Positions 9,531 to 57,133 of a DNA stretch of 64,000 bases are shown one piece after another. The first letter of the stretch is position 1. The number at the start of each line of letters is the position of its first letter. The stretch is taken from assembly GCA_009783145.1 (NCBI GenBank), contig WRHR01000003.1, forward strand, positions 23,019 through 87,018, in the 5' to 3' direction. A program made the position numbers and the translations under genes. This DNA is from Alphaproteobacteria bacterium. Lineage in GTDB: Bacteria > Pseudomonadota > Alphaproteobacteria > Rs-D84. The notes beneath the pieces were generated by a model that ran no database searches, had not been told where the DNA came from, and saw only the letters and a program-made list of their open reading frames with translations.

Positions 9531-9722
9531 CCTTGCTCGCAGAGTAAAGATTTTTCGGCTTTGCCGAAAAATCAGAGTAACGCTCGCTGCGCTCGCAGAG
9601 TAGGAGAGTAAGAGAGTATCTATAACTCCCTACTCTTCTACTCTCTTACTCTAGCAAACGCTGTGCGTTTGCGTCACTCTGCCGGCGAAGCCGGCGTTAC
9701 TCTGCGCGCTTCGCGCGCTACC
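9531..9722. repeat. Family A element, copy A2 (near-identical to A1)
   Basis: Same architecture and the same position relative to the downstream pseudopilin paralog. Confidence 0.85.
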
Positions 9723-15107: not shown

Positions 15108-15111
15108 AAAA

Positions 15112-15280
15112 GCGGGGTCGCGGTTCCCCTCCTGTGGAGGGGTGGATTGCGAGCGAAGCAAAGCAAGACGGGGTGGTTCTTGTAATGTGCGAGATTTTTC
15201 ACCCCACTCAAGGGGCAGGAAAACAACCACCCCCGCCGCGCGATAACGGCGCGATGCCCCTCCACAGGAGGGGAACACCT
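15112..15280. repeat. Family B palindromic element (ccctcctgtggagggg termini), intergenic copy B1
   Basis: Terminal IR cggttcccctcctgtggaggggtgg / cccctccacaggaggggaac; shares the internal gacggggtggttcNtgtaatgt block with B2. Confidence 0.8.
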
Positions 15281-22888: not shown

Positions 22889-24265
22889 TTATTTTCCCAA
22901 ACATAATTGCCCGAATACGGAATCGGCAACCTCCGATGCGCCGATGACGCCCAGAATCTGGCCTATATTGTCCGCCGCGCGGCGAATATGCTCGGAAAAC
23001 AAATCCATATTGGTCTTTTGTCCTTCAGCTTTTGCCAGTTCATCCGCAGCGGCTTGCAGATGCATGCGCGCGCGCTCATTAAGGGCGACATCGGACTGGG
23101 CGCCATCCAGACGGCTATGCACTTCCGCGCGAATTCGTTCCAACAGCTCTGGTATTCCTTCGCCGGTCAATGCCGAGACGCGAAACGCGAAACGCGAAAC
23201 GCGATTATTATTATCCAGCAAATCACATTTGTTTATGACGATTATTTCATTATCACGCGTTTCGCGTTTCGCGTTTCGCGTCTCGACCCTTATCACCAAA
23301 TCCGCCCTTTCAATTTCCTGGTTGGTTTTTTCAATCCCGATCTTTTCTATCGTATCTTGCGTCTCGCGCAAGCCGGCGGTATCCGCCAATCGCACAAGGT
23401 ACCCGTCTATATCGATTTCGGCCGACACCACGTCGCGCGTAGTGCCTGGGATTTCCGAAACTATCGCGCGCGATTCTCCAACCAAGCGATTGAACAGCGA
23501 CGATTTTCCGGCATTAACCGGCCCTATGATGGCTATATTGAAACCGCTGCGGATAGACCTGGCCGCGGCGCTGCGGGATAATGCTGCTGAAATTTCTTTA
23601 CCCAGGGCACGAGTGCGCGAGAGTATTGTCTCGCCGATATTCGCAGGAAGTTCTTCGGCCGGATAGTCCAGCATTGCGGCGGAATAGGCTGTGATTTCAA
23701 CCATTTGCAAGCGCCAGTTCTCATATACGGCACTGTCCGCGCCGGCGGCAGCGCGCAAAGCGCTTCGCCGCTGGGCATCAGTGCGCGAATCCAAAAGGGC
23801 CGCCAAGCCGTCGGCCTCTATCAAATCCATTTTGCCGTTATCGAAGGCGCGGCGGGCGAACTCGCCGGGATTCGCCAAGCGCGCCCCATACGCGCGCAGG
23901 GTCGCGAATAATTTTTCAATTACGGCCGCGGCGCCATGAACATGAAACTCAATAATATCTTCGCCGGTGAAACTGTGTGGGGCCTGGAAATAAATGGCAA
24001 TCGCGCGGTCAATCACATCGCTGCTTTTATCAACCAGGTCGGCGAGATACGCATGGCGGGGCAGCGGTTCCCCTCCTGTGGAGGGGTGGCTCGCGAATGA
24101 AATGAGCGAGACGGGGTGGTTCGTGTAATGTTCGCAGTTGGCTAAACCACCCCGGCCCTTCGGGCCACCCCTCCACAGGAGGGGAACCGCTGCCCCGCTG
24201 ACGCGCACGACCGCAACGCCCGCTTTTCCATGTCCCGAAGATAATGCGAAAATCGTATCGGTCAT
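22889..24265 (-). CDS. mnmE: tRNA modification GTPase MnmE, carrying two in-frame palindromic-element insertions
   Basis: FTGEDIIEFHVHG N-domain, G-domain GPVNAGKSSL, NKCDL, C-terminal CLGK. An extra 47-aa segment (VPLLWRGG...GGEPLP) is encoded by element B, and the RVETRNAKRETR/RVSRFAFRVS segments by element I. Confidence 0.88.
   Translation of the reverse strand: MTDTIFALSSGHGKAGVAVVRVSGAAVPLLWRGGPKGRGGLANCEHYTNHPVSLISFASHPSTGGEPLPRHAYLADLVDKSSDVIDRAIAIYFQAPHSFTGEDIIEFHVHGAAAVIEKLFATLRAYGARLANPGEFARRAFDNGKMDLIEADGLAALLDSRTDAQRRSALRAAAGADSAVYENWRLQMVEITAYSAAMLDYPAEELPANIGETILSRTRALGKEISAALSRSAAARSIRSGFNIAIIGPVNAGKSSLFNRLVGESRAIVSEIPGTTRDVVSAEIDIDGYLVRLADTAGLRETQDTIEKIGIEKTNQEIERADLVIRVETRNAKRETRDNEIIVINKCDLLDNNNRVSRFAFRVSALTGEGIPELLERIRAEVHSRLDGAQSDVALNERARMHLQAAADELAKAEGQKTNMDLFSEHIRRAADNIGQILGVIGASEVADSVFGQLCLGK
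23175..23275. repeat. Family I (gcgaaac)n palindrome, copy I1, inside mnmE G-domain coding region
   Basis: gagacgcgaaacgcgaaacgcgaaacgcg ... cgcgtttcgcgtttcgcgtttcgcgtctc. Confidence 0.8.
24057..24197. repeat. Family B element, copy B2, 141 bp in-frame inside mnmE
   Basis: ggggcagcggttcccctcctgtggaggggtgg ... ccacccctccacaggaggggaaccgctgcccc; 141 bp equals 47 codons. Confidence 0.85.
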
Positions 24266-28722: not shown

Positions 28723-29109
28723 CTATTTCTTTACAGTTATCTTCCCAACCGCGTCATAGCCAAAGTACTTGTTAATCCGCGCACGGAATTCCTCTGTTCT
28801 GTATGATAATTCCATTGCAAACGCGGGCTGCACCGCTTTCAGCGTTATGTTGAATTTTGTAGGGGCGCATTTTTGCGCCCTTTTAATCGGTCGCTTTGCG
28901 ACCGACGGGGCACAAGAATGTGCCCCTACACTACGTATCCCTTGCAGCTTCGCCAAACGCGCCAAGTCCGCGCCTATGATTTCGTTCCACCGCGCGGCCA
29001 AGTCTGCATCAGACGCGCGCACGCCGAATATTTTCAGCAAGCCTCCGAACGCCCCGCCCAAGCTTTGCGGGCGCGAAGTTCGGAGTGAAAGATTAGGTTT
29101 TGCTTTCAT
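28723..29109 (-). CDS. DciA-like (DUF721) protein with in-frame palindromic insertion
   Basis: C-terminal LKAVQPAFAMELSYRTEEFRARINKYFGYDAVGKITV fits the DUF721/DciA family; the segment VGAHSCAPSVAKRPIKRAQKCAPT is encoded by hairpin element F. Confidence 0.5.
   Translation of the reverse strand: MKAKPNLSLRTSRPQSLGGAFGGLLKIFGVRASDADLAARWNEIIGADLARLAKLQGIRSVGAHSCAPSVAKRPIKRAQKCAPTKFNITLKAVQPAFAMELSYRTEEFRARINKYFGYDAVGKITVKK
28858..28930. repeat. Family F nested-hairpin element in-frame in dciA-like gene
   Basis: tgtaggggcgcatttttgcgccc..ggtcgctttgcgacc..ggggcacaagaatgtgcccctaca. Confidence 0.75.
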
Positions 29110-30780: not shown

Positions 30781-30893
30781 TCTTTTCAGAGTGTTCGCTC
30801 GCTTCGCGCGCAGAGTAGAAGATTAAGAGAGTATCTATAACTCTACTACTCTCTTACTCTGATTTTGCGAAGCAAAATCGTTACTCTTGTTCT
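30781..30893. repeat. Family A element, copy A3
   Basis: cagagtagaagattaagagagtatctataactctactactctcttactctg plus gcgaagc hairpins. Confidence 0.8.
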
Positions 30894-31683: not shown

Positions 31684-31784
31684 ATGGCAAATGGCAAATG
31701 TAAAATGGCAAATGTAAGGTGATAAAGAGATAAACTGTGCTCTTACCTTCCACATTTTACATTTGCCATTTGCCATTTGCCATC
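31684..31784. repeat. Family C (caaatgg)n palindromic element, intergenic copy C1
   Basis: atggcaaatggcaaatgtaaaatggcaaatgtaagg ... ccttccacattttacatttgccatttgccatttgccat. Confidence 0.8.
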
Positions 31785-33410: not shown

Positions 33411-33440
33411 AAACGCGGGCAAAGCCCGCGTTTTTAATTA
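33410..33440 (+). terminator. Rho-independent terminator after acyl-CoA synthetase gene
   Basis: aaaaacgcgggcaaagcccgcgtttttaatt. Confidence 0.75.
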
Positions 33441-33563
33441 GAGTAGTAGAGTAAGAGAGTAAGAGAGTAAAAGAGTAAATAATATCTATAACTCTACTAC
33501 TCTCTTACTCTGCAAACGCAAAGCGTTTGCGTTACTCTGCGAGCGAAGCGAGCGCTACTCTCA
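33440..33563. repeat. Family A element, copy A4 (supplies tsaE C-terminus and stop)
   Basis: agagtagtagagtaagagagtaagagagtaaaagagtaaataatatctataactctactactctcttactctg plus gcaaacgcaaagcgtttgc and gcgagcgaagcgagcgc. Confidence 0.8.
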
Positions 33564-33972
33564 ATTTTCTGCCGCCCTCAAACTCCGTAATAAAAATATG
33601 AATAGTATTGGCGGGCAGGAAATTGGTGGCAATCTCCGGCCATTCTATCAAGGTAATATCATTTGCAATCGCATGCGACAGACCAATTTCTTCCAATTCC
33701 GAAACATCGGTGATGCGATAAAGGTCAAAATGGGAAATACATTTGCCATTTGCCATTTGCCATTTGCCTTCGTATGTCTGAACCAAGGTAAAGGTAGGAC
33801 TCGGCACGACGGTATCCGCGCCGCATAGGGTCTGAATAATCGCGCGCGCAATCTCGGACTTTCCCATGCCCAAGTCGCCATGCAGGGCCACCACACACGG
33901 AGCATGCAGAGTTTTCGCAAACTCCCCCGCCCACGCGCGCGTTTCATCAATGTTTTTTAGAATTATTTCCAC
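33532..33972 (-). CDS. tsaE: tRNA threonylcarbamoyladenosine biosynthesis protein TsaE
   Basis: GDLGMGKSEIARAI P-loop, SPTFTLVQTYE, HFDLYR. GTG start. The GKWQMANGK segment is encoded by a (caaatgg)n repeat and the last 11 aa plus stop by an A element. Confidence 0.85.
   Translation of the reverse strand: MEIILKNIDETRAWAGEFAKTLHAPCVVALHGDLGMGKSEIARAIIQTLCGADTVVPSPTFTLVQTYEGKWQMANGKCISHFDLYRITDVSELEEIGLSHAIANDITLIEWPEIATNFLPANTIHIFITEFEGGRKLRVALASLAE
33738..33772. repeat. Family C (caaatgg)n tract in-frame in tsaE
   Basis: acatttgccatttgccatttgcc encodes GKWQMANGK on the minus strand. Confidence 0.8.
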
Positions 33973-34020
33973 TCTTTTACTCTCCTACTCTTTCACTCTG
34001 CCGGCGAAGCCGGCGTTACT
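33962..34020. repeat. Family A half-element, copy A5 (between uvrB stop and tsaE GTG start)
   Basis: actcttttactctcctactctttcactctgccggcgaagccggcgttactc. Confidence 0.7.
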
Positions 34021-36004
34021 CCAACAACAAATCATCTTCCATCTTGCGGATGGTGTCGCGGATGGCGGAGGCTTCTTCGAACTCCAAATTCTCGGCATGC
34101 CTGAACATCTTCCTGCGCAAGTCCGCGATTGTCTTCTCCAAGCTTGCCCTATCCATAACCCCGCCGGATTTAGTATAAACAAATTGTCGCTTCTTATCTG
34201 TTTTCTCAATCCGGTCGCCGACCTCATTGAATACTGATTTTATAATAGTCTTCGGCACAATGCCATGCTTTTCGTTATAGGCCATCTGTTTTTCACGGCG
34301 ACGCGAAGTCTCGTCCATTGCAGCGCGCATGCTGTCCGTTATTGTATCCGCGTACAGAATCACACGCCCATTGCTATTGCGCGCAGCGCGCCCGATTGTC
34401 TGTATCAAGCTGCGGGTGCTGCGCAAGAATCCTTCCTTGTCTGCGTCCATGATTGCAACCAGCTCGCACTCCGGAACATCCAACCCTTCGCGCAAAAGGT
34501 TGATTCCAACCAATACATCGAACTTTCCCATTCGCAACTCGCGCAATAACTCTATGCGCTCCAAAGTCTCAATATCGCTGTGCAAATACCGCGCGCGAAC
34601 GCCATGCTCGTTTAAATAATCCGTCAGCTGTTCGGACATTTTTTTGGTGAGAGTTGTTATAAGAACGCGGCCTTTGGTTTTCTTTATCTCGTGCAATAAA
34701 TCATCTACTTGGTTCTTTGTCGGGCGAACTTCGACGACAGGATCCAACAGTCCTGTCGGGCGGATTACCTGCTCGGCAACGATTCCGCCGGCTTGCGTTA
34801 GTTCCCATTCCGCGGGAGTTGCGGATACGAATATGGTCTGCGGGCGCATGGCGTCCCATTCCTCGAACCGCAGCGGGCGGTTGTCCGCGCACGAAGGCAA
34901 ACGAAAACCGTATTCATACAACGAGCGTTTTCTCGCGGCGTCTCCCTTGGACATAGCGCCGATTTGCGGCACGGAAACGTGAGATTCATCCACAAACAAA
35001 ATCGCGTCTTTGGGCAGGTACTCGAATAAAGTCGGAGGCGGCTGGCCGGGCGCGCGTCCCGACAAATACCGCGAATAGTTCTCTATCCCGCGGCAGATGC
35101 CCGTCGCCTCCATCATCTCTATGTCGTAATTGGTGCGCTCGCGCAGGCGCTGTTCCTCCACATACTTCATATTTTCATGAAAGTAATCCAAGCGCGGCTG
35201 CAGGTCTTTTCGTATCTCCCCTATCGCTTGCAAGACCGTCGGCTGAGGCGTTGCGTAATGGGTATTTGGATATACCGCGATATGGTCCAGCTTATGCAGC
35301 TTGGCGCCGGTTAGTGTATCGAACTCCCAGATTTCCTCTATCTCGTCGCCAAAGAACGAAATCTTCCATCCGCGGTCTTGGCTGTGCGACGGAAAAATGT
35401 CCAAGGTATCGCCGCGAACTCGAAAATCCCCGCGGTCAAAGCCCACTTCATTGCGCTTGTATTGAATATCAACCAAAGCGCGCATTACATCCTTGGCGCT
35501 TAATTTGTCGCCCGCGCCCAGCACCAGTTTCATCCCAGAATATTGCTCCGGAGAACCCATTCCGTAAATGCTGGATACGCTTGAGACCACAATAACATCG
35601 CGCTCTTCCAGCATCGCGCGCGTGGCGCTGTGCCGCATGCGGTCCAGCTGATCATTTACGGATGCATCCTTATCGATATAAGTATCCGTGACTGGCAAGT
35701 ATGCCTCTGGCTGATAGTAATCGTAATACGAAACGAAGTATTCCACATGATTGTGCGGGAAAAAGGACTTCATCTCGGTATAAAGCTGCGCGGCCAGAAT
35801 CTTGTTTGGCGCCATTATCAGTGCCGGCCGACCCATATTTGCAATCACATTCGCCATGGTAAAGGTCTTTCCCGTGCCGGTGGCCCCCAGCAATACCTGG
35901 GACCGGCGGCCTTCTTTCAGGCCAGCGGCCAATTCGGCAATGGCCGCCGGTTGGTCGCCTGATGGCTTGTAGCTGCTTTGAAGATTAAAATTTGTTTTTT
36001 TCAT
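34016..36004 (-). CDS. uvrB: Excinuclease ABC subunit B
   Basis: [11 protein letters not shown]alker A, helicase motifs, C-terminal UVR domain ([19 protein letters not shown]). Confidence 0.93.
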
Positions 36005-44107: not shown

Positions 44108-46684
<2,577 letters not shown>

Positions 46685-46693
46685 AGATTCAAA

Positions 46694-47269
46694 ATGAAAT
46701 TCAAATTACTATATTTCGGAGAGCTTCGGACCAACCCGAAAAAGCGGTCCCAGCACATCGCAAACATACGCATGCAGTTCCATCCTCAGTTGAAAAAGCT
46801 GGTTGAAAACAGCCCCTGGAACAACATGCAGAAATATATGATGCCGGGGGCCACGAAAAGCCCGATTTCAACTCGGCATGTCGGCGGAATCGACTGGAAT
46901 CCTATTATTACGCCGAACCTGAAGCTGTTGGCGGAATTGGACGTATTGCTGATGCATCCGCAGATAGTGGGACTGGGACGCACCGATATAGACAACAGAA
47001 TGAAGACTTTGCTGGACGCATTGCGCAGCCCTCAGAACGAGCATGAAATAGGCGAGAACACGCCGAAAAATATGGGGCCGATTTATACTCTGCTGGACGA
47101 CGACCATCTGGTTACGAAAATATCGGTTAATACATCGCACTTGCTGGCGCCGCAAATGTTGGGGACCCGGCTGCAAGCCGACGACGGCGAAGAAAAGGTG
47201 TTTTTGCTGATAGATGTGAATGTAAGGGTGGAAGAAGGGAATTTGGAGAATTTGCCGTTTATGGTGTAA
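46694..47269 (+). CDS. Hypothetical protein
   Basis: Start at MKFKLLYF; the upstream ORF-track extension is repeat I2-derived. Confidence 0.4.
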   Translation: MKFKLLYFGELRTNPKKRSQHIANIRMQFHPQLKKLVENSPWNNMQKYMMPGATKSPISTRHVGGIDWNPIITPNLKLLAELDVLLMHPQIVGLGRTDIDNRMKTLLDALRSPQNEHEIGENTPKNMGPIYTLLDDDHLVTKISVNTSHLLAPQMLGTRLQADDGEEKVFLLIDVNVRVEEGNLENLPFMV

Positions 47270-47285: not shown

Positions 47286-47413
47286 CGGATTTTTTAGAGT
47301 AGAAGAGTAACGCCGGCTTCGCCGGCAGAGTAAGAGAGTAGTAAAGTATTAGATTACTCTTTAACTCTCTTACTCTTCTACTTTGCAAACGCGAAGCGTT
47401 TGCGTTACTCTGG
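47286..47413. repeat. Family A element, copy A6
   Basis: agagtagaagagtaacgccggcttcgccggcagagtaagagagtagtaaagtattagattactctttaactctcttactcttctact plus gcaaacgcgaagcgtttgc. Confidence 0.8.
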
Positions 47414-47423
47414 CTTACCGCGC

Positions 47424-48167
47424 CTAGGCGCGGTATAACCCTCCGTTTACATGAATCGTCTGCCCGGTAATATATGACGCTACATCGGAAGCCAGGAACA
47501 GGGCCGCATTTGCGATATCGGACGGCTCGCCAAAACGGCCGGCCGGAATCTGCGCCAAGTACTGCGCTTTCAATTCTTCCGGCAAAACATCAGTCATGGG
47601 GGTTTTGATAAAGCCCGGCGCGATGCAGTTCGCAGTGATTCCGCGCGATGCGACCTCGGCCGCAATGGATTTCGTCATCGCGACGATGCCGCCTTTGCTT
47701 GCCGCATAGTTCGCCTGACCCGGGCCTCCGATTGTGCCGATGATGGACGACATATTTATGATGCGCCCATACCTTGCCTTCATCATGGGAATAATTGCAG
47801 CGCGGCATAATTGAAAAGTAGCACGCAAATTGGTGTTAATCACATCGTCGAACTGCTCGTCCGTCATGCGCATCAACAGGGTATCTTTCGTAATGCCGGC
47901 ATTATTGACCAGAATGTCTATTTTCCCGGCCTTCTCGATGGTTTCCGCGACTAAACGGTCGGCTTCACCCAATTTGCTCAAATCTGCAACAATTGGAATT
48001 ACATTTGCCATTTTACATTTGCCATTTGCCATCTCTTCCAGTTTCGCGGCGTCTCTGCCCGTAATAATAACTGTTGCGCCCTGGCCCGCGAAACTGGAAG
48101 CTATCGCTTCGCCGATTCCGCCTGTGGCGCCGGTGATTAATGCAACTTTGTCTTTGAGTAACAACAT
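47424..48167 (-). CDS. fabG: 3-oxoacyl-[acyl-carrier-protein] reductase FabG
   Basis: KVALITGATGGIG, NNAG, YAASKGG SDR motifs; an extra MANGKCKMAN segment is encoded by a (caaatgg)n repeat. Confidence 0.88.
   Translation of the reverse strand: MLLLKDKVALITGATGGIGEAIASSFAGQGATVIITGRDAAKLEEMANGKCKMANVIPIVADLSKLGEADRLVAETIEKAGKIDILVNNAGITKDTLLMRMTDEQFDDVINTNLRATFQLCRAAIIPMMKARYGRIINMSSIIGTIGGPGQANYAASKGGIVAMTKSIAAEVASRGITANCIAPGFIKTPMTDVLPEELKAQYLAQIPAGRFGEPSDIANAALFLASDVASYITGQTIHVNGGLYRA
48003..48034. repeat. Family C tract in-frame in fabG
   Basis: catttgccattttacatttgccatttgccat encodes MANGKCKMAN. Confidence 0.75.
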
Positions 48168-56194: not shown

Positions 56195-57133
56195 TCATTT
56201 AATTTTTCCTTCTAGCCATTTCCAAAATGCCGGCTCTATTGTTGTTTCCAGTTTCGCAAATTTGATTTTCTTTTGCGCGATAGGCGGCAAACGAATCCAA
56301 TCTTTTTCAGTGGTTATCAATTCTGCTTTTTCTTTTACCGCTAATGCGAACAATTTTTTCAAATCGGCATCAGAATATTGATAATGATCTGGGAAAGAAA
56401 TCGTTTTTACCGGCCTTTTCGGCAATTTTTCAAAAAACTTCTTCGGATATCCGATACCGGCAAAAGCTATGAACGGCAAATGGCAAATAGAAGATGGCAA
56501 ATGTGTCTCGCTTTTTGCCAAAAACACCGGCTTTTTGTACCTTTTTGCAGCAATTTCCACTTCTGATTCCCCATTTGCCATTATTATCACCGCATCCGCT
56601 CTCTTTATTGCGCTCAGCGGTTCCCGCAAAGGCCCGGCAGGCAGAATGAACCCATTTCCAATGCCGATTTTCCCGTCAAAAACAGGGATGGAAATATCTT
56701 TTTTTACGGTCGGATTTTGAAATCCGTCGTCCATAATGATGTGTGAAAAGCCGGCCTTTTCGACCATTTTTATGCTTTTCAACCGGTCCTTTCCAACAAA
56801 GACTGGCAAACCGGACGCGGCCAACATCTTCGCCTCATCGCCGACATCCGCTGCCGTATCATTTGACCCGACTTTTCCGGCCTTTTTGCCTTTATACCCC
56901 TGCATAACTATTGCAGAACTGGGGAACAAGCGGGCAACTTCGCGGACTATCGGGGTTTTCCCGACGCCGCCGGCAAGAATATTGCCTATGCAAATTACCG
57001 GCCTTTTTGCACTTTTTTGCCAAAAAGACCGGTAAAAAAAGACTGCGCGGCTGGTCAAAAGATATAGCCAAGACACCGGCAGCAAAAGCCACGCGATAAT
57101 ATTTCTTTCAAGAAACCAATTCGGTGTTTTCAT
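56195..57133 (-). CDS. lpxK: Tetraacyldisaccharide 4'-kinase LpxK
   Basis: GNILAGGVGKTP P-loop, SRGYKG-like, IMDDGFQN; a THLPSSICHLPF segment is encoded by a (caaatgg)n repeat. Confidence 0.85.
   Translation of the reverse strand: MKTPNWFLERNIIAWLLLPVSWLYLLTSRAVFFYRSFWQKSAKRPVICIGNILAGGVGKTPIVREVARLFPSSAIVMQGYKGKKAGKVGSNDTAADVGDEAKMLAASGLPVFVGKDRLKSIKMVEKAGFSHIIMDDGFQNPTVKKDISIPVFDGKIGIGNGFILPAGPLREPLSAIKRADAVIIMANGESEVEIAAKRYKKPVFLAKSETHLPSSICHLPFIAFAGIGYPKKFFEKLPKRPVKTISFPDHYQYSDADLKKLFALAVKEKAELITTEKDWIRLPPIAQKKIKFAKLETTIEPAFWKWLEGKIK
56473..56504. repeat. Family C tract in-frame in lpxK
   Basis: ggcaaatggcaaatagaagatggcaaatg; a further catttgccat lies at 56571-56580. Confidence 0.7.

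Follow-up and report, generated by a model that had tools for sequence, protein, structure and literature searches.

Two palindromic sequences within the mnmE reading frame of an alphaproteobacterial genome

Palindromes B and I in mnmE

The window analysed here is a 64,000-nt stretch of an alphaproteobacterial genome (contig WRHR01000003.1 of assembly GCA_009783145.1, positions 23,019 to 87,018), in which the essential gene for the tRNA-modification GTPase MnmE contains two palindromic sequences, designated elements B and I; an earlier note, made from the sequence alone, had described both as in-frame insertions resembling Rickettsia palindromic elements (RPEs). The mnmE open reading frame (ORF) encodes a protein with Pfam matches to TrmE_N, MMR_HSR1 and MnmE_helical and a match to PDB entry 1xzp (E = 7e-67); it is intact, and motifs G1-G5 and the C-terminal CLGK motif are all present. 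An identical protein, MCL1891949.1, is recorded from a metagenome-assembled genome (MAG) labelled Alphaproteobacteria bacterium. The AlphaFold (AF2) model has a predicted local distance difference test score (pLDDT) of 79.9 and matched solved MnmE structures with template modelling (TM) scores of 0.65-0.69; the N-domain alone gave TM 0.89 at 1.7 Å. The features are listed in Table 1.

Both palindromes are genuine and lie far above chance expectation. The 24-mer GGTTCCCCTCCTGTGGAGGGGTGG of B occurs three times in the window and was absent from 100 shuffles, and the (GCGAAAC)3 pattern of I gave nine matches against 0.01 expected. The RNA of B is predicted to fold at -114.3 kcal/mol (z = -14.6). 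Searching the whole window with Rfam at gathering thresholds returned two tRNAs only, and no known RNA family at B or I. The earlier note had quoted the peptides encoded by the elements correctly, and had also correctly placed a further copy of B, termed B1, after typA.

Table 1. Positions of the palindromic features, and of the genes that carry them, within the window
Feature	Position	Strand	Remarks
mnmE ORF	22889-24265	-	458 aa
Element B, cargo-less palindromic element, in-frame	24056-24198	-	codons 23-70; 143 nt
B arm, 5' end in coding sense	24161-24198	-	outer box GGTTCCCCTCC-TGT-GGAGGGGTGG; encodes SGAAVPLLWRGGP
B arm, 3' end in coding sense	24056-24093	-	outer box CCACCCCTCC-ACA-GGAGGGGAACC; encodes ASHPSTGGEPLPR
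B inner boxes and 23-nt variable centre (cargo slot)	24112-24154	-	CGGGGTGGTT 24145-24154; AACCACCCCG 24112-24121
B1, intergenic copy of B	15111-15279	+	directly after typA stop codon
I upstream arm, (GCGAAAC)n	23256-23287	-	encodes VETRNAKRETR, loop between β4 and β5
Host segment between I arms	23204-23255	-	DNEIIVINKCDLLDNNN, strand β5 and G4 NKCD; conserved in all aligned orthologues
I downstream arm, (GTTTCGC)n	23172-23203	-	encodes RVSRFAFRVSA; outer end overlaps conserved VSA (G5) codons GTC TCG GCA
I2, (GCGAAAC)n arm pair	46499-46685		arms 46499-46534 and 46650-46685 around 115-nt AT-rich divergent intergenic region
RluD-like ORF	4745-5719	-	in-frame (AGAGCAC)n inverted arms 5473-5505 / 5568-5600, encoding NRAQSTEHR and NSVLCALCSVHC
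LpxK ORF	56195-57133	-	in-frame (GGCAAAT)n arms 56472-56488 / 56566-56582
Single 34-nt arm in FabG-like ORF	47999-48032		encodes MANGKCKMAN
Intergenic arm identical to FabG-like arm	31684-31717
DciA ORF	28723-29109	-	in-frame REP-like doublet, GTAG-tagged, 28855-28933 (TGTAGGGGCGCA; TTTTGTAGGGGCGCATTTTTG and complement, 37-nt spacer)
(AAAGAAT)n arms	6145-6184 / 6231-6270		bracket ribosome-binding site and start codon of ORF 5712-6191
Other heptamer arrays near start codons	29106; 52372; 46499/46685		end at or within a few nt of start codons
Dispersed intergenic family	8133-8260; 9571-9710; 30786-30890; 33440-33575; 33959-34027; 47301-47412		8-nt AGAGTAAN/AGAGTAGN arrays interleaved with small GC-rich hairpins

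Each arm of B comprises 38 nt; the arms are 97% complementary, with 67 nt between them, and at either end of the element the last 5-6 bp consist of host codons (AGC GGG for SG, CCC CGC for PR) that are also found in element-free relatives. When the protein was aligned with orthologues (30 MnmE sequences, 56-71% identity), relatives were found to carry about 18 residues, the helix DLxxLFxxIxxxxxxIx, between RVSG and PRHAY, where this MnmE has 45; the median length of this N-domain linker across 104 homologues is likewise 18, giving a net gain of 27 aa. Helix α1 (about 18 codons) was thus replaced by 45 codons of B, a swap and not a pure addition. The 47 added codons claimed earlier therefore do not hold, since the stretch from RVSG to R[HY]A is 18 aa long in orthologues; nor is RVSGAA a conserved block, as conservation covers RVSG alone and the codons for AA are part of the palindrome. 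In the AlphaFold model VPLLWR forms a short helix at residues 27-32 and residues 34-63 form a loop with pLDDT < 50, while the fold of the N-domain is kept. B would be read as a Gly/Pro-rich disordered loop, with VPLLWR in place of α1. No direct repeat that could represent a target-site duplication flanks B in mnmE; the flanks are the complementary host codons GCGGGG / CCCCGC.

The α1-β3 linker of MnmE, from RVSG to PRHAY, is an insertion hot spot across the clade, as seen in loci L012, L014, L017, L093 and L098. Compact hairpins of G/C runs occur there (TAATTGCCCCCCCCAGGGGGGGGTAATTA, CTCCCCCCCGTAGGGGGGGAG and CCCTTCGCTGGCGAAGGG), with peptides such as LNCPPQGGVI and PFAGEGV, and one of these linker hairpins recurs among MnmE orthologues that are only about 50% identical.

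In the distance tree the sister orthologue is P0002 (locus L011), in which B occupies the identical codon and frame and shares the variable mini-hairpin GGCCC(G/A)AAGGGCC with this gene; mnmE of the next relative, P0006, is without B. This distribution suggests that B was acquired once, before this MAG and its sister diverged. The 12-nt outer extension of the arms is missing in L011, suggesting that the palindrome grew outward into host codons in the present lineage. Conservation of B DNA between the sisters was considered as proof of selection and set aside: the left half is 43/44 identical, yet conserved parts of the gene reach 84%, and the contrast is moderate. P0002 (L011 6001-7410) has been annotated with an internal GTG as its start, 66 nt downstream of where MnmE truly begins (MTDTIFALSSGHGKAG...).

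Element I differs from B in its relation to the host gene. Its arms (30-32 nt, 100% complementary) lie 52 nt apart, and these 52 nt are conserved MnmE codons, DNEIIVINKCDLL, with a strand modelled at residues 340-345. The two variable loops that contain the arms, flanking the G4 motif, measure 20 and 15 aa, compared with medians of 22 and 13 in 106 homologues. Because the loops are no longer than in homologues and the interior consists of conserved MnmE codons, the alignment shows I as an overwriting of about 21 codons in two variable loops, with zero net residues and no insertion of a unit. In-frame insertion, which had been proposed for both elements, consequently stands for B, which is absent from most orthologues, and fails for I. 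Element I also runs to 23287 and does not end at 23275 as first described. I2 had been taken as its second copy, which is correct for the arms, each of which abuts a ribosome-binding site (that of gyrB, ATG 46486 on the minus strand, and that of an ORF starting at 46694). The two arm pairs, the mnmE pair being termed I1, have their outer and inner arm boundaries in common, although their centres are unrelated, that of I2 being AT-rich intergenic DNA.

The B family and its DUF559 long forms

B and B1 have the same boxes, and their mini-hairpins and centre differ. The left arm of B and the left 35 nt of B1 are identical at 33 of 35 positions, including the outer extension AGCGGGG; this identity, embracing the 12-nt outer extension, suggests that B and B1 were copied between each other within this genome. 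Copying from arm to arm and from copy to copy may be what has kept the arms of B near-perfect, judging from these comparisons. One plan is common to twelve copies taken from the window and related MAGs: an outer box, a variable mini-hairpin, an inner box and a variable centre of 20-80 nt, followed by the mirror image. The outer box forms a hairpin by itself and has the generalised form TTCCCCTCC-NNN-GGAGGGGTGG; that of the inner box is GGGGTGGTT. Copies of the family beyond the window were found in at least six related MAGs, and a search of 185,579 species genomes for the exact B 24-mer gave hits in uncultured alphaproteobacterial MAGs and one contig labelled Muribaculaceae only.

The palindromes might in principle be assembly or amplification artefacts, as palindromes can originate as chimeras, or might be bypassed by the ribosome in the manner of the inserted elements of phage T4 and yeast mitochondria (10.1101/2022.08.31.505936). 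We regard this as scarcely credible; in-frame examples of these element families come from independent assemblies made in different projects, and the reading frame is open in all intragenic copies, which neither an artefact nor bypassed DNA would require.

Both a class II aldolase and a RuvX-like ORF contain left halves of B on their own, in-frame. Because such solo halves occur, the half is the basic unit, and complete elements are inverted pairs of halves. In mnmE of P0015, P0027 and P0041 (loci L012, L017 and L095), B-type halves flank 80 nt of mnmE coding sequence.

The centre of the long forms of the family holds an ORF for a DUF559/Vsr-like PD-(D/E)XK endonuclease. In L005 (CADAFS010000007.1, a rumen MAG; positions 600-2300), QueA is broken in-frame by two DUF559 domains (PF04480, E = 2e-52), both of which sit exactly between B-type outer and inner boxes; in L017 (1378-3405) a DUF559 domain lies in-frame inside MnmE at the N-domain hot spot. 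A DUF559 ORF is bracketed by the same outer and inner boxes in L099 (1501-2092), and in L100 (Gallionella MAG GCA_028749025.1; 1450-2042) a cargo-less short element adjoins a long form, with identical boxes around the DUF559 ORF. The boxes around the DUF559 ORFs of L005, L099 and L100 are identical to those of B. Among the 120 closest DUF559 proteins, 95 displayed box motifs in translated form at set distances from the catalytic core; since the flanks encoded by the boxes were part of the query, this figure is biased upward. Within the PD-(D/E)XK nucleases, DUF559 falls in the Vsr clade (VSR/DUF559/DUF2726), as do a repair enzyme that nicks DNA and I-Bth0305I, a homing endonuclease (PMC3424549, PMC3239194). 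A DUF559 nuclease may thus mobilise the B family, and B would be a non-autonomous form of a DUF559-associated element, in parallel to REPIN and its transposase RAYT (the REP-associated tyrosine transposase) with a different enzyme. Genes containing these elements are split or cut short by gene callers, as in the QueA fragments P0122-P0124, P0128, P0138 and P0184.

The anatomy of both elements bears on the proposal that B and I are alike RPE-like mobile palindromic elements, each inserted in-frame as a unit. Each is bounded by inverted repeats and has another copy in the window, B itself fits unit insertion, and a REP-type doublet (repetitive extragenic palindrome) in the DciA ORF constitutes a clean 21-aa insertion relative to DciA of L097. 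The interior of I, however, is conserved MnmE coding sequence, I1 and I2 are alike in their arms only, even B swapped out about 18 codons, and B-type halves are found alone in-frame or split around host sequence. We therefore consider unit insertion of both elements improbable; the RPE-like interpretation is retained for B, a dispersed palindromic family with an in-frame copy in a modelled surface or disordered loop, and dropped for I. Several routes by which unit insertion could leave arms on either side of host sequence were worked through and rejected (deletions after two full elements had entered; deletion after a duplication; uptake of the host segment as cargo), as each takes several unlikely steps or leaves the G4 segment deleted or inverted. 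The DciA REP family occurs also in the helical domain of mnmE in L011, L095 and L097.

Inverted repeats at the G4 site and across the window

The sequence around the NKxD (G4) motif was compared in 11 close orthologue genes, with 57 distant mnmE genes as a negative control; the latter came from a metagenome scan for mnmE relatives, which returned mostly distant genes. Inverted repeats of at least 18 nt were present in 7 of the 11, with differing arm families, whereas in the 57 distant genes no inverted repeat at this position exceeded 15 nt. The arms are (GCGAAAC)n in this gene, (CAAAGTG)n in P0003, TAATTGCCCCCTTTGGGGGG in P0002 and GCAAACC/GCAAATC in P0004, the last being homologous-looking to those of this gene, with compensating changes in both arms. 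In P0015, P0027 and P0041 they are the B-type halves mentioned above, with mnmE coding sequence as the 'centre', and in P0009 (L094) one heptamer family lies on both sides of G4 in direct orientation.

Inverted repeats are not restricted to mnmE. The window contains 38 local inverted repeats whose arms measure 16 nt or more, compared with 1-7 in shuffles, and 11 of these are heptamer-armed; GCGAAAC, ATTTACG, GGCAAAT, AATTAGC and AACTGAG each occur as units at two or more loci, and the period is 7 in 27 of the 31 listed window arrays of period 6-9. The count of heptamer-armed repeats is 11 in 64 kb here, 7 in 13 kb at the sister locus and 4 in 276 kb from 74 distant loci. The P0006 genome yielded none in 16 kb, and its mnmE is also without an inverted repeat.

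Several of these repeats lie in other reading frames. In the RluD-like ORF, the arms flank a conserved S4-domain segment, LKSSEKVKAGDNIEV, with a net gain of 2 aa relative to E. coli RluD; in LpxK they are accommodated with zero length gain, and in both genes, as in I, host codons have been overwritten without insertion. The single arm of the FabG-like ORF and an intergenic arm at a distance of 16 kb are 100% identical, indicating that arms are copied between loci. The AGAGCAC unit of the RluD-like arms is found in-frame in L095 mnmE as well (STEHRAQS). One of the (AAAGAAT)n arms encodes the signal-peptide core IFILYSLFFILF, and the other begins right after the stop codon of the upstream ORF; further heptamer arrays end at or near start codons (Table 1), as is the case for the TAACTGA repeats of Beggiatoaceae (PMC4679880). 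A separate dispersed intergenic family has copies up to 92% alike across 39 kb, its small hairpins including GCCGGCGAAGCCGGC and GCAAACGCTTCGCGTTTGC.

The recurrence at G4 could be taken to mean that the inverted repeat there is a selected structure, either a cruciform in the DNA or a hairpin in the mRNA that adjusts the expression or stability of mnmE, for instance by being cut by RNase III or by making translation pause, with arms free to turn over as long as pairing is kept. The difference between close and distant orthologues would agree with this, as would the retention of pairing despite differing arm families, including the compensating differences in P0004, and the uninterrupted 32-bp stem predicted for the RNA of element I (-65.9 kcal/mol, z = -9.0). 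The presence of the repeat follows the genome-wide inverted-repeat load, however, and not mnmE, since P0006 has neither and the sister has many; the direct heptamers of L094 are unable to pair, equivalent arm pairs occur in unrelated genes and at intergenic sites, the arms of I2 would fall on different transcripts, and homogenisation by template switching keeps pairing without selection (PMC8604942). On these grounds a selected hairpin appears unlikely, though still to be reckoned with, and the very stable mRNA and single-stranded DNA hairpins would be by-products, with no mnmE-specific device involved.

The arm pairs were also considered as intragenic or promoter invertons, in which a recombinase or RecA flips the intervening segment and thereby switches mnmE and other genes. 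Their architecture matches that of invertons (PMC10028968), with inverted repeats of 20-40 nt, segments of 10-130 nt, arms at several loci and variable centres; the centres include a divergent promoter region (I2) and a ribosome-binding site with start codon (6145-6270), and the flipped mnmE segment of I remains an open frame. Flipping in silico nevertheless destroys NKCD in mnmE and creates stop codons in B, RluD and LpxK, the eight or more heptamer units in 64 kb would require many recombinase specificities, and an invertase gene was not identified. Inversion of this kind is, in our judgement, very improbable.

The inverted repeats are best regarded as products of genome-wide DNA-level processes, of which template switching is the most likely. 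Template switching lengthens and homogenises arms in coding DNA while length remains unchanged (PMC8604942, PMC7202029). The arms of I may have arisen, and may stay complementary, through replication template switching between the arms together with slippage within the arrays, and rarer copying between loci would produce the similarity of I1 and I2. In mnmE of P0041 (L095 2057-2107), conserved host codons form a perfect 25-nt palindrome with a 1-nt loop, in which VVRLSGKNL is mirrored to TDFFQIIEQ (helix α1); this palindrome of host codons shows inverted copying in place, without change of length. Telomerase-like end addition was considered as a source of the heptamer arms and rejected; evidence for it was not found, and eight or more units would need as many templates.

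Interpretation and relation to known systems

On balance, and with modest confidence, we favour the interpretation that two distinct palindrome processes at the DNA level have marked mnmE, with B belonging to a nuclease-associated mobile family and I resulting from local templated copying, both tolerated in permissive parts of the protein. A broader proposal is more tentative, and we hold it possible but doubtful: that B represents an undescribed, phylum-spanning kind of selfish DNA, composed of paired palindromic half-sites, which is mobilised or copy-corrected by a DUF559/Vsr-like nicking endonuclease and, whether or not it carries the nuclease ORF, is written in-frame into essential genes, mnmE and queA among them. 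In prone genomes, that same short-patch templated repair would overwrite nearby loop codons with matching arms, including 7-nt arrays, giving coupled repeats around conserved coding segments.

A number of observations weigh against the favoured interpretation. A DUF559 gene was not found in the 64-kb window by tblastn, the action of a DUF559 nuclease on the boxes is something that we infer, and the count of box-flanked DUF559 proteins carries the upward bias noted above. Template switching poorly explains why the same arm family occupies both G4-flanking loops in 8 of 11 orthologues, once in direct orientation (L094), why 80 nt of conserved coding sequence can be flanked by B-type halves (L012, L017, L095), and why a 7-nt period is preferred. 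Recurrence at one site, with compensating changes between the arms of P0004 and those of this gene, could mean selection for the hairpin, and read-through of the elements is deduced from open frames.

These repeats show that long perfect hairpins (30-38 bp) can enter essential genes without a change in protein length, and that in a single GTPase the same two loops were rewritten several times over among related lineages. The heptamer case in mnmE offers a natural system for templated multi-nucleotide mutation, for the tolerance of palindromes and for the absorption of such events by a protein. In practical terms, Gly/Pro-rich peptides derived from these elements should not be taken as functional motifs, and affected genes may be split or truncated by gene callers, as in P0002 and the QueA fragments.

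The heptamer arrays resemble the STRR (short tandemly repeated repetitive) sequences of cyanobacteria and the TAACTGA repeats of Beggiatoaceae in their period of 7, in their 3-6 units per array and in the position of many of them a few nt upstream of start codons; the origin of those repeats is unknown (PMC4679880). The published repeats are tandem arrays of at least three 7-nt units, mostly between genes and often near start codons, and the arrays here agree with them; but this genome has many different units, most of them in inverted pairs 6-130 nt apart and several within coding sequence, and neither the inverted pairing nor the intragenic copies figure in the published account (PMC4679880). 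With template-switch (quasipalindrome) mutation the arms share lengthening and perfection in coding DNA, with length unchanged and without any need for selection (PMC8604942, PMC7202029), and that model fits both the host-sequence palindrome of L095 and the outward growth of B. Documented events are single and have arms of at most 16 bp, whereas the arms here reach 18-38 nt, are recurrent and are common to several loci.

REPINs are inverted doublets of short hairpin-forming units with a less conserved spacer; singlets exist, and an enzyme gene lies between inverted boxes (PMC3116915). B is similar in its conserved boxes, variable mini-hairpins and centre, solo halves and candidate enzyme gene between inverted boxes. 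It differs in that many of its copies lie within genes and are translated, that the DUF559 ORF exists in multiple copies and that host genes can accommodate the entire unit in-frame. The gene between B-type boxes is moreover DUF559 (PF04480) and not an HUH/Y1 RAYT, although no genome-wide search for RAYT was made, and the B boxes lack the GTAG/CGTC tag of extragenic REPs (PMC3733652, PMC3116915), the mnmE copy being intragenic; the DciA family has GTAG. As in MITEs (miniature transposable elements with inverted repeats), the termini of the short form are those of the enzyme-encoding long forms (L005, L099, L100), from which mobilisation by the enzyme may be surmised, but B in mnmE lacks the target-site duplication. 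Vsr-like (EDxHD) homing endonucleases such as I-Bth0305I belong to the same nuclease clade and are likewise selfish ORFs within conserved host genes (PMC3424549, PMC3239194); no intron or intein is involved here, however, and the ORF and boxes are read through in the host protein (QueA, MnmE).

RPEs are palindromic repeats of several families, located in-frame in unrelated housekeeping genes at positions compatible with the fold (PMC10969869). B and the DciA REP doublet are comparable to them as palindromic repeats of about 100-150 bp lying in-frame in an alphaproteobacterium, which is a likeness of behaviour. B agrees with them in size and copy number (143 nt, 38-nt arms, two loci in 64 kb) and in its in-frame peptide, a net 27 additional residues at a fold-compatible position, whereas I is an arm pair that forms no contiguous repeat and contributes no net residues. 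B is set apart from RPEs by an identifiable nuclease-encoding long form, by its replacement of host codons and by halves that are also found solo or split around host sequence; I involves no insertion.

DUF559 ORFs are abundant and unexplained in many bacteria, and to our knowledge the enzyme that mobilises the in-frame palindromic repeats of Rickettsia has never been clear. Among 25 consulted papers that mention DUF559, none makes a link to palindromic repeats. What is new relative to RPEs is the link to DUF559 through shared modular termini, a potentially important lead, and the coupled arms around conserved coding segments; an RPE-comparable element tied to a specific nuclease family makes the mechanism directly testable in vitro.

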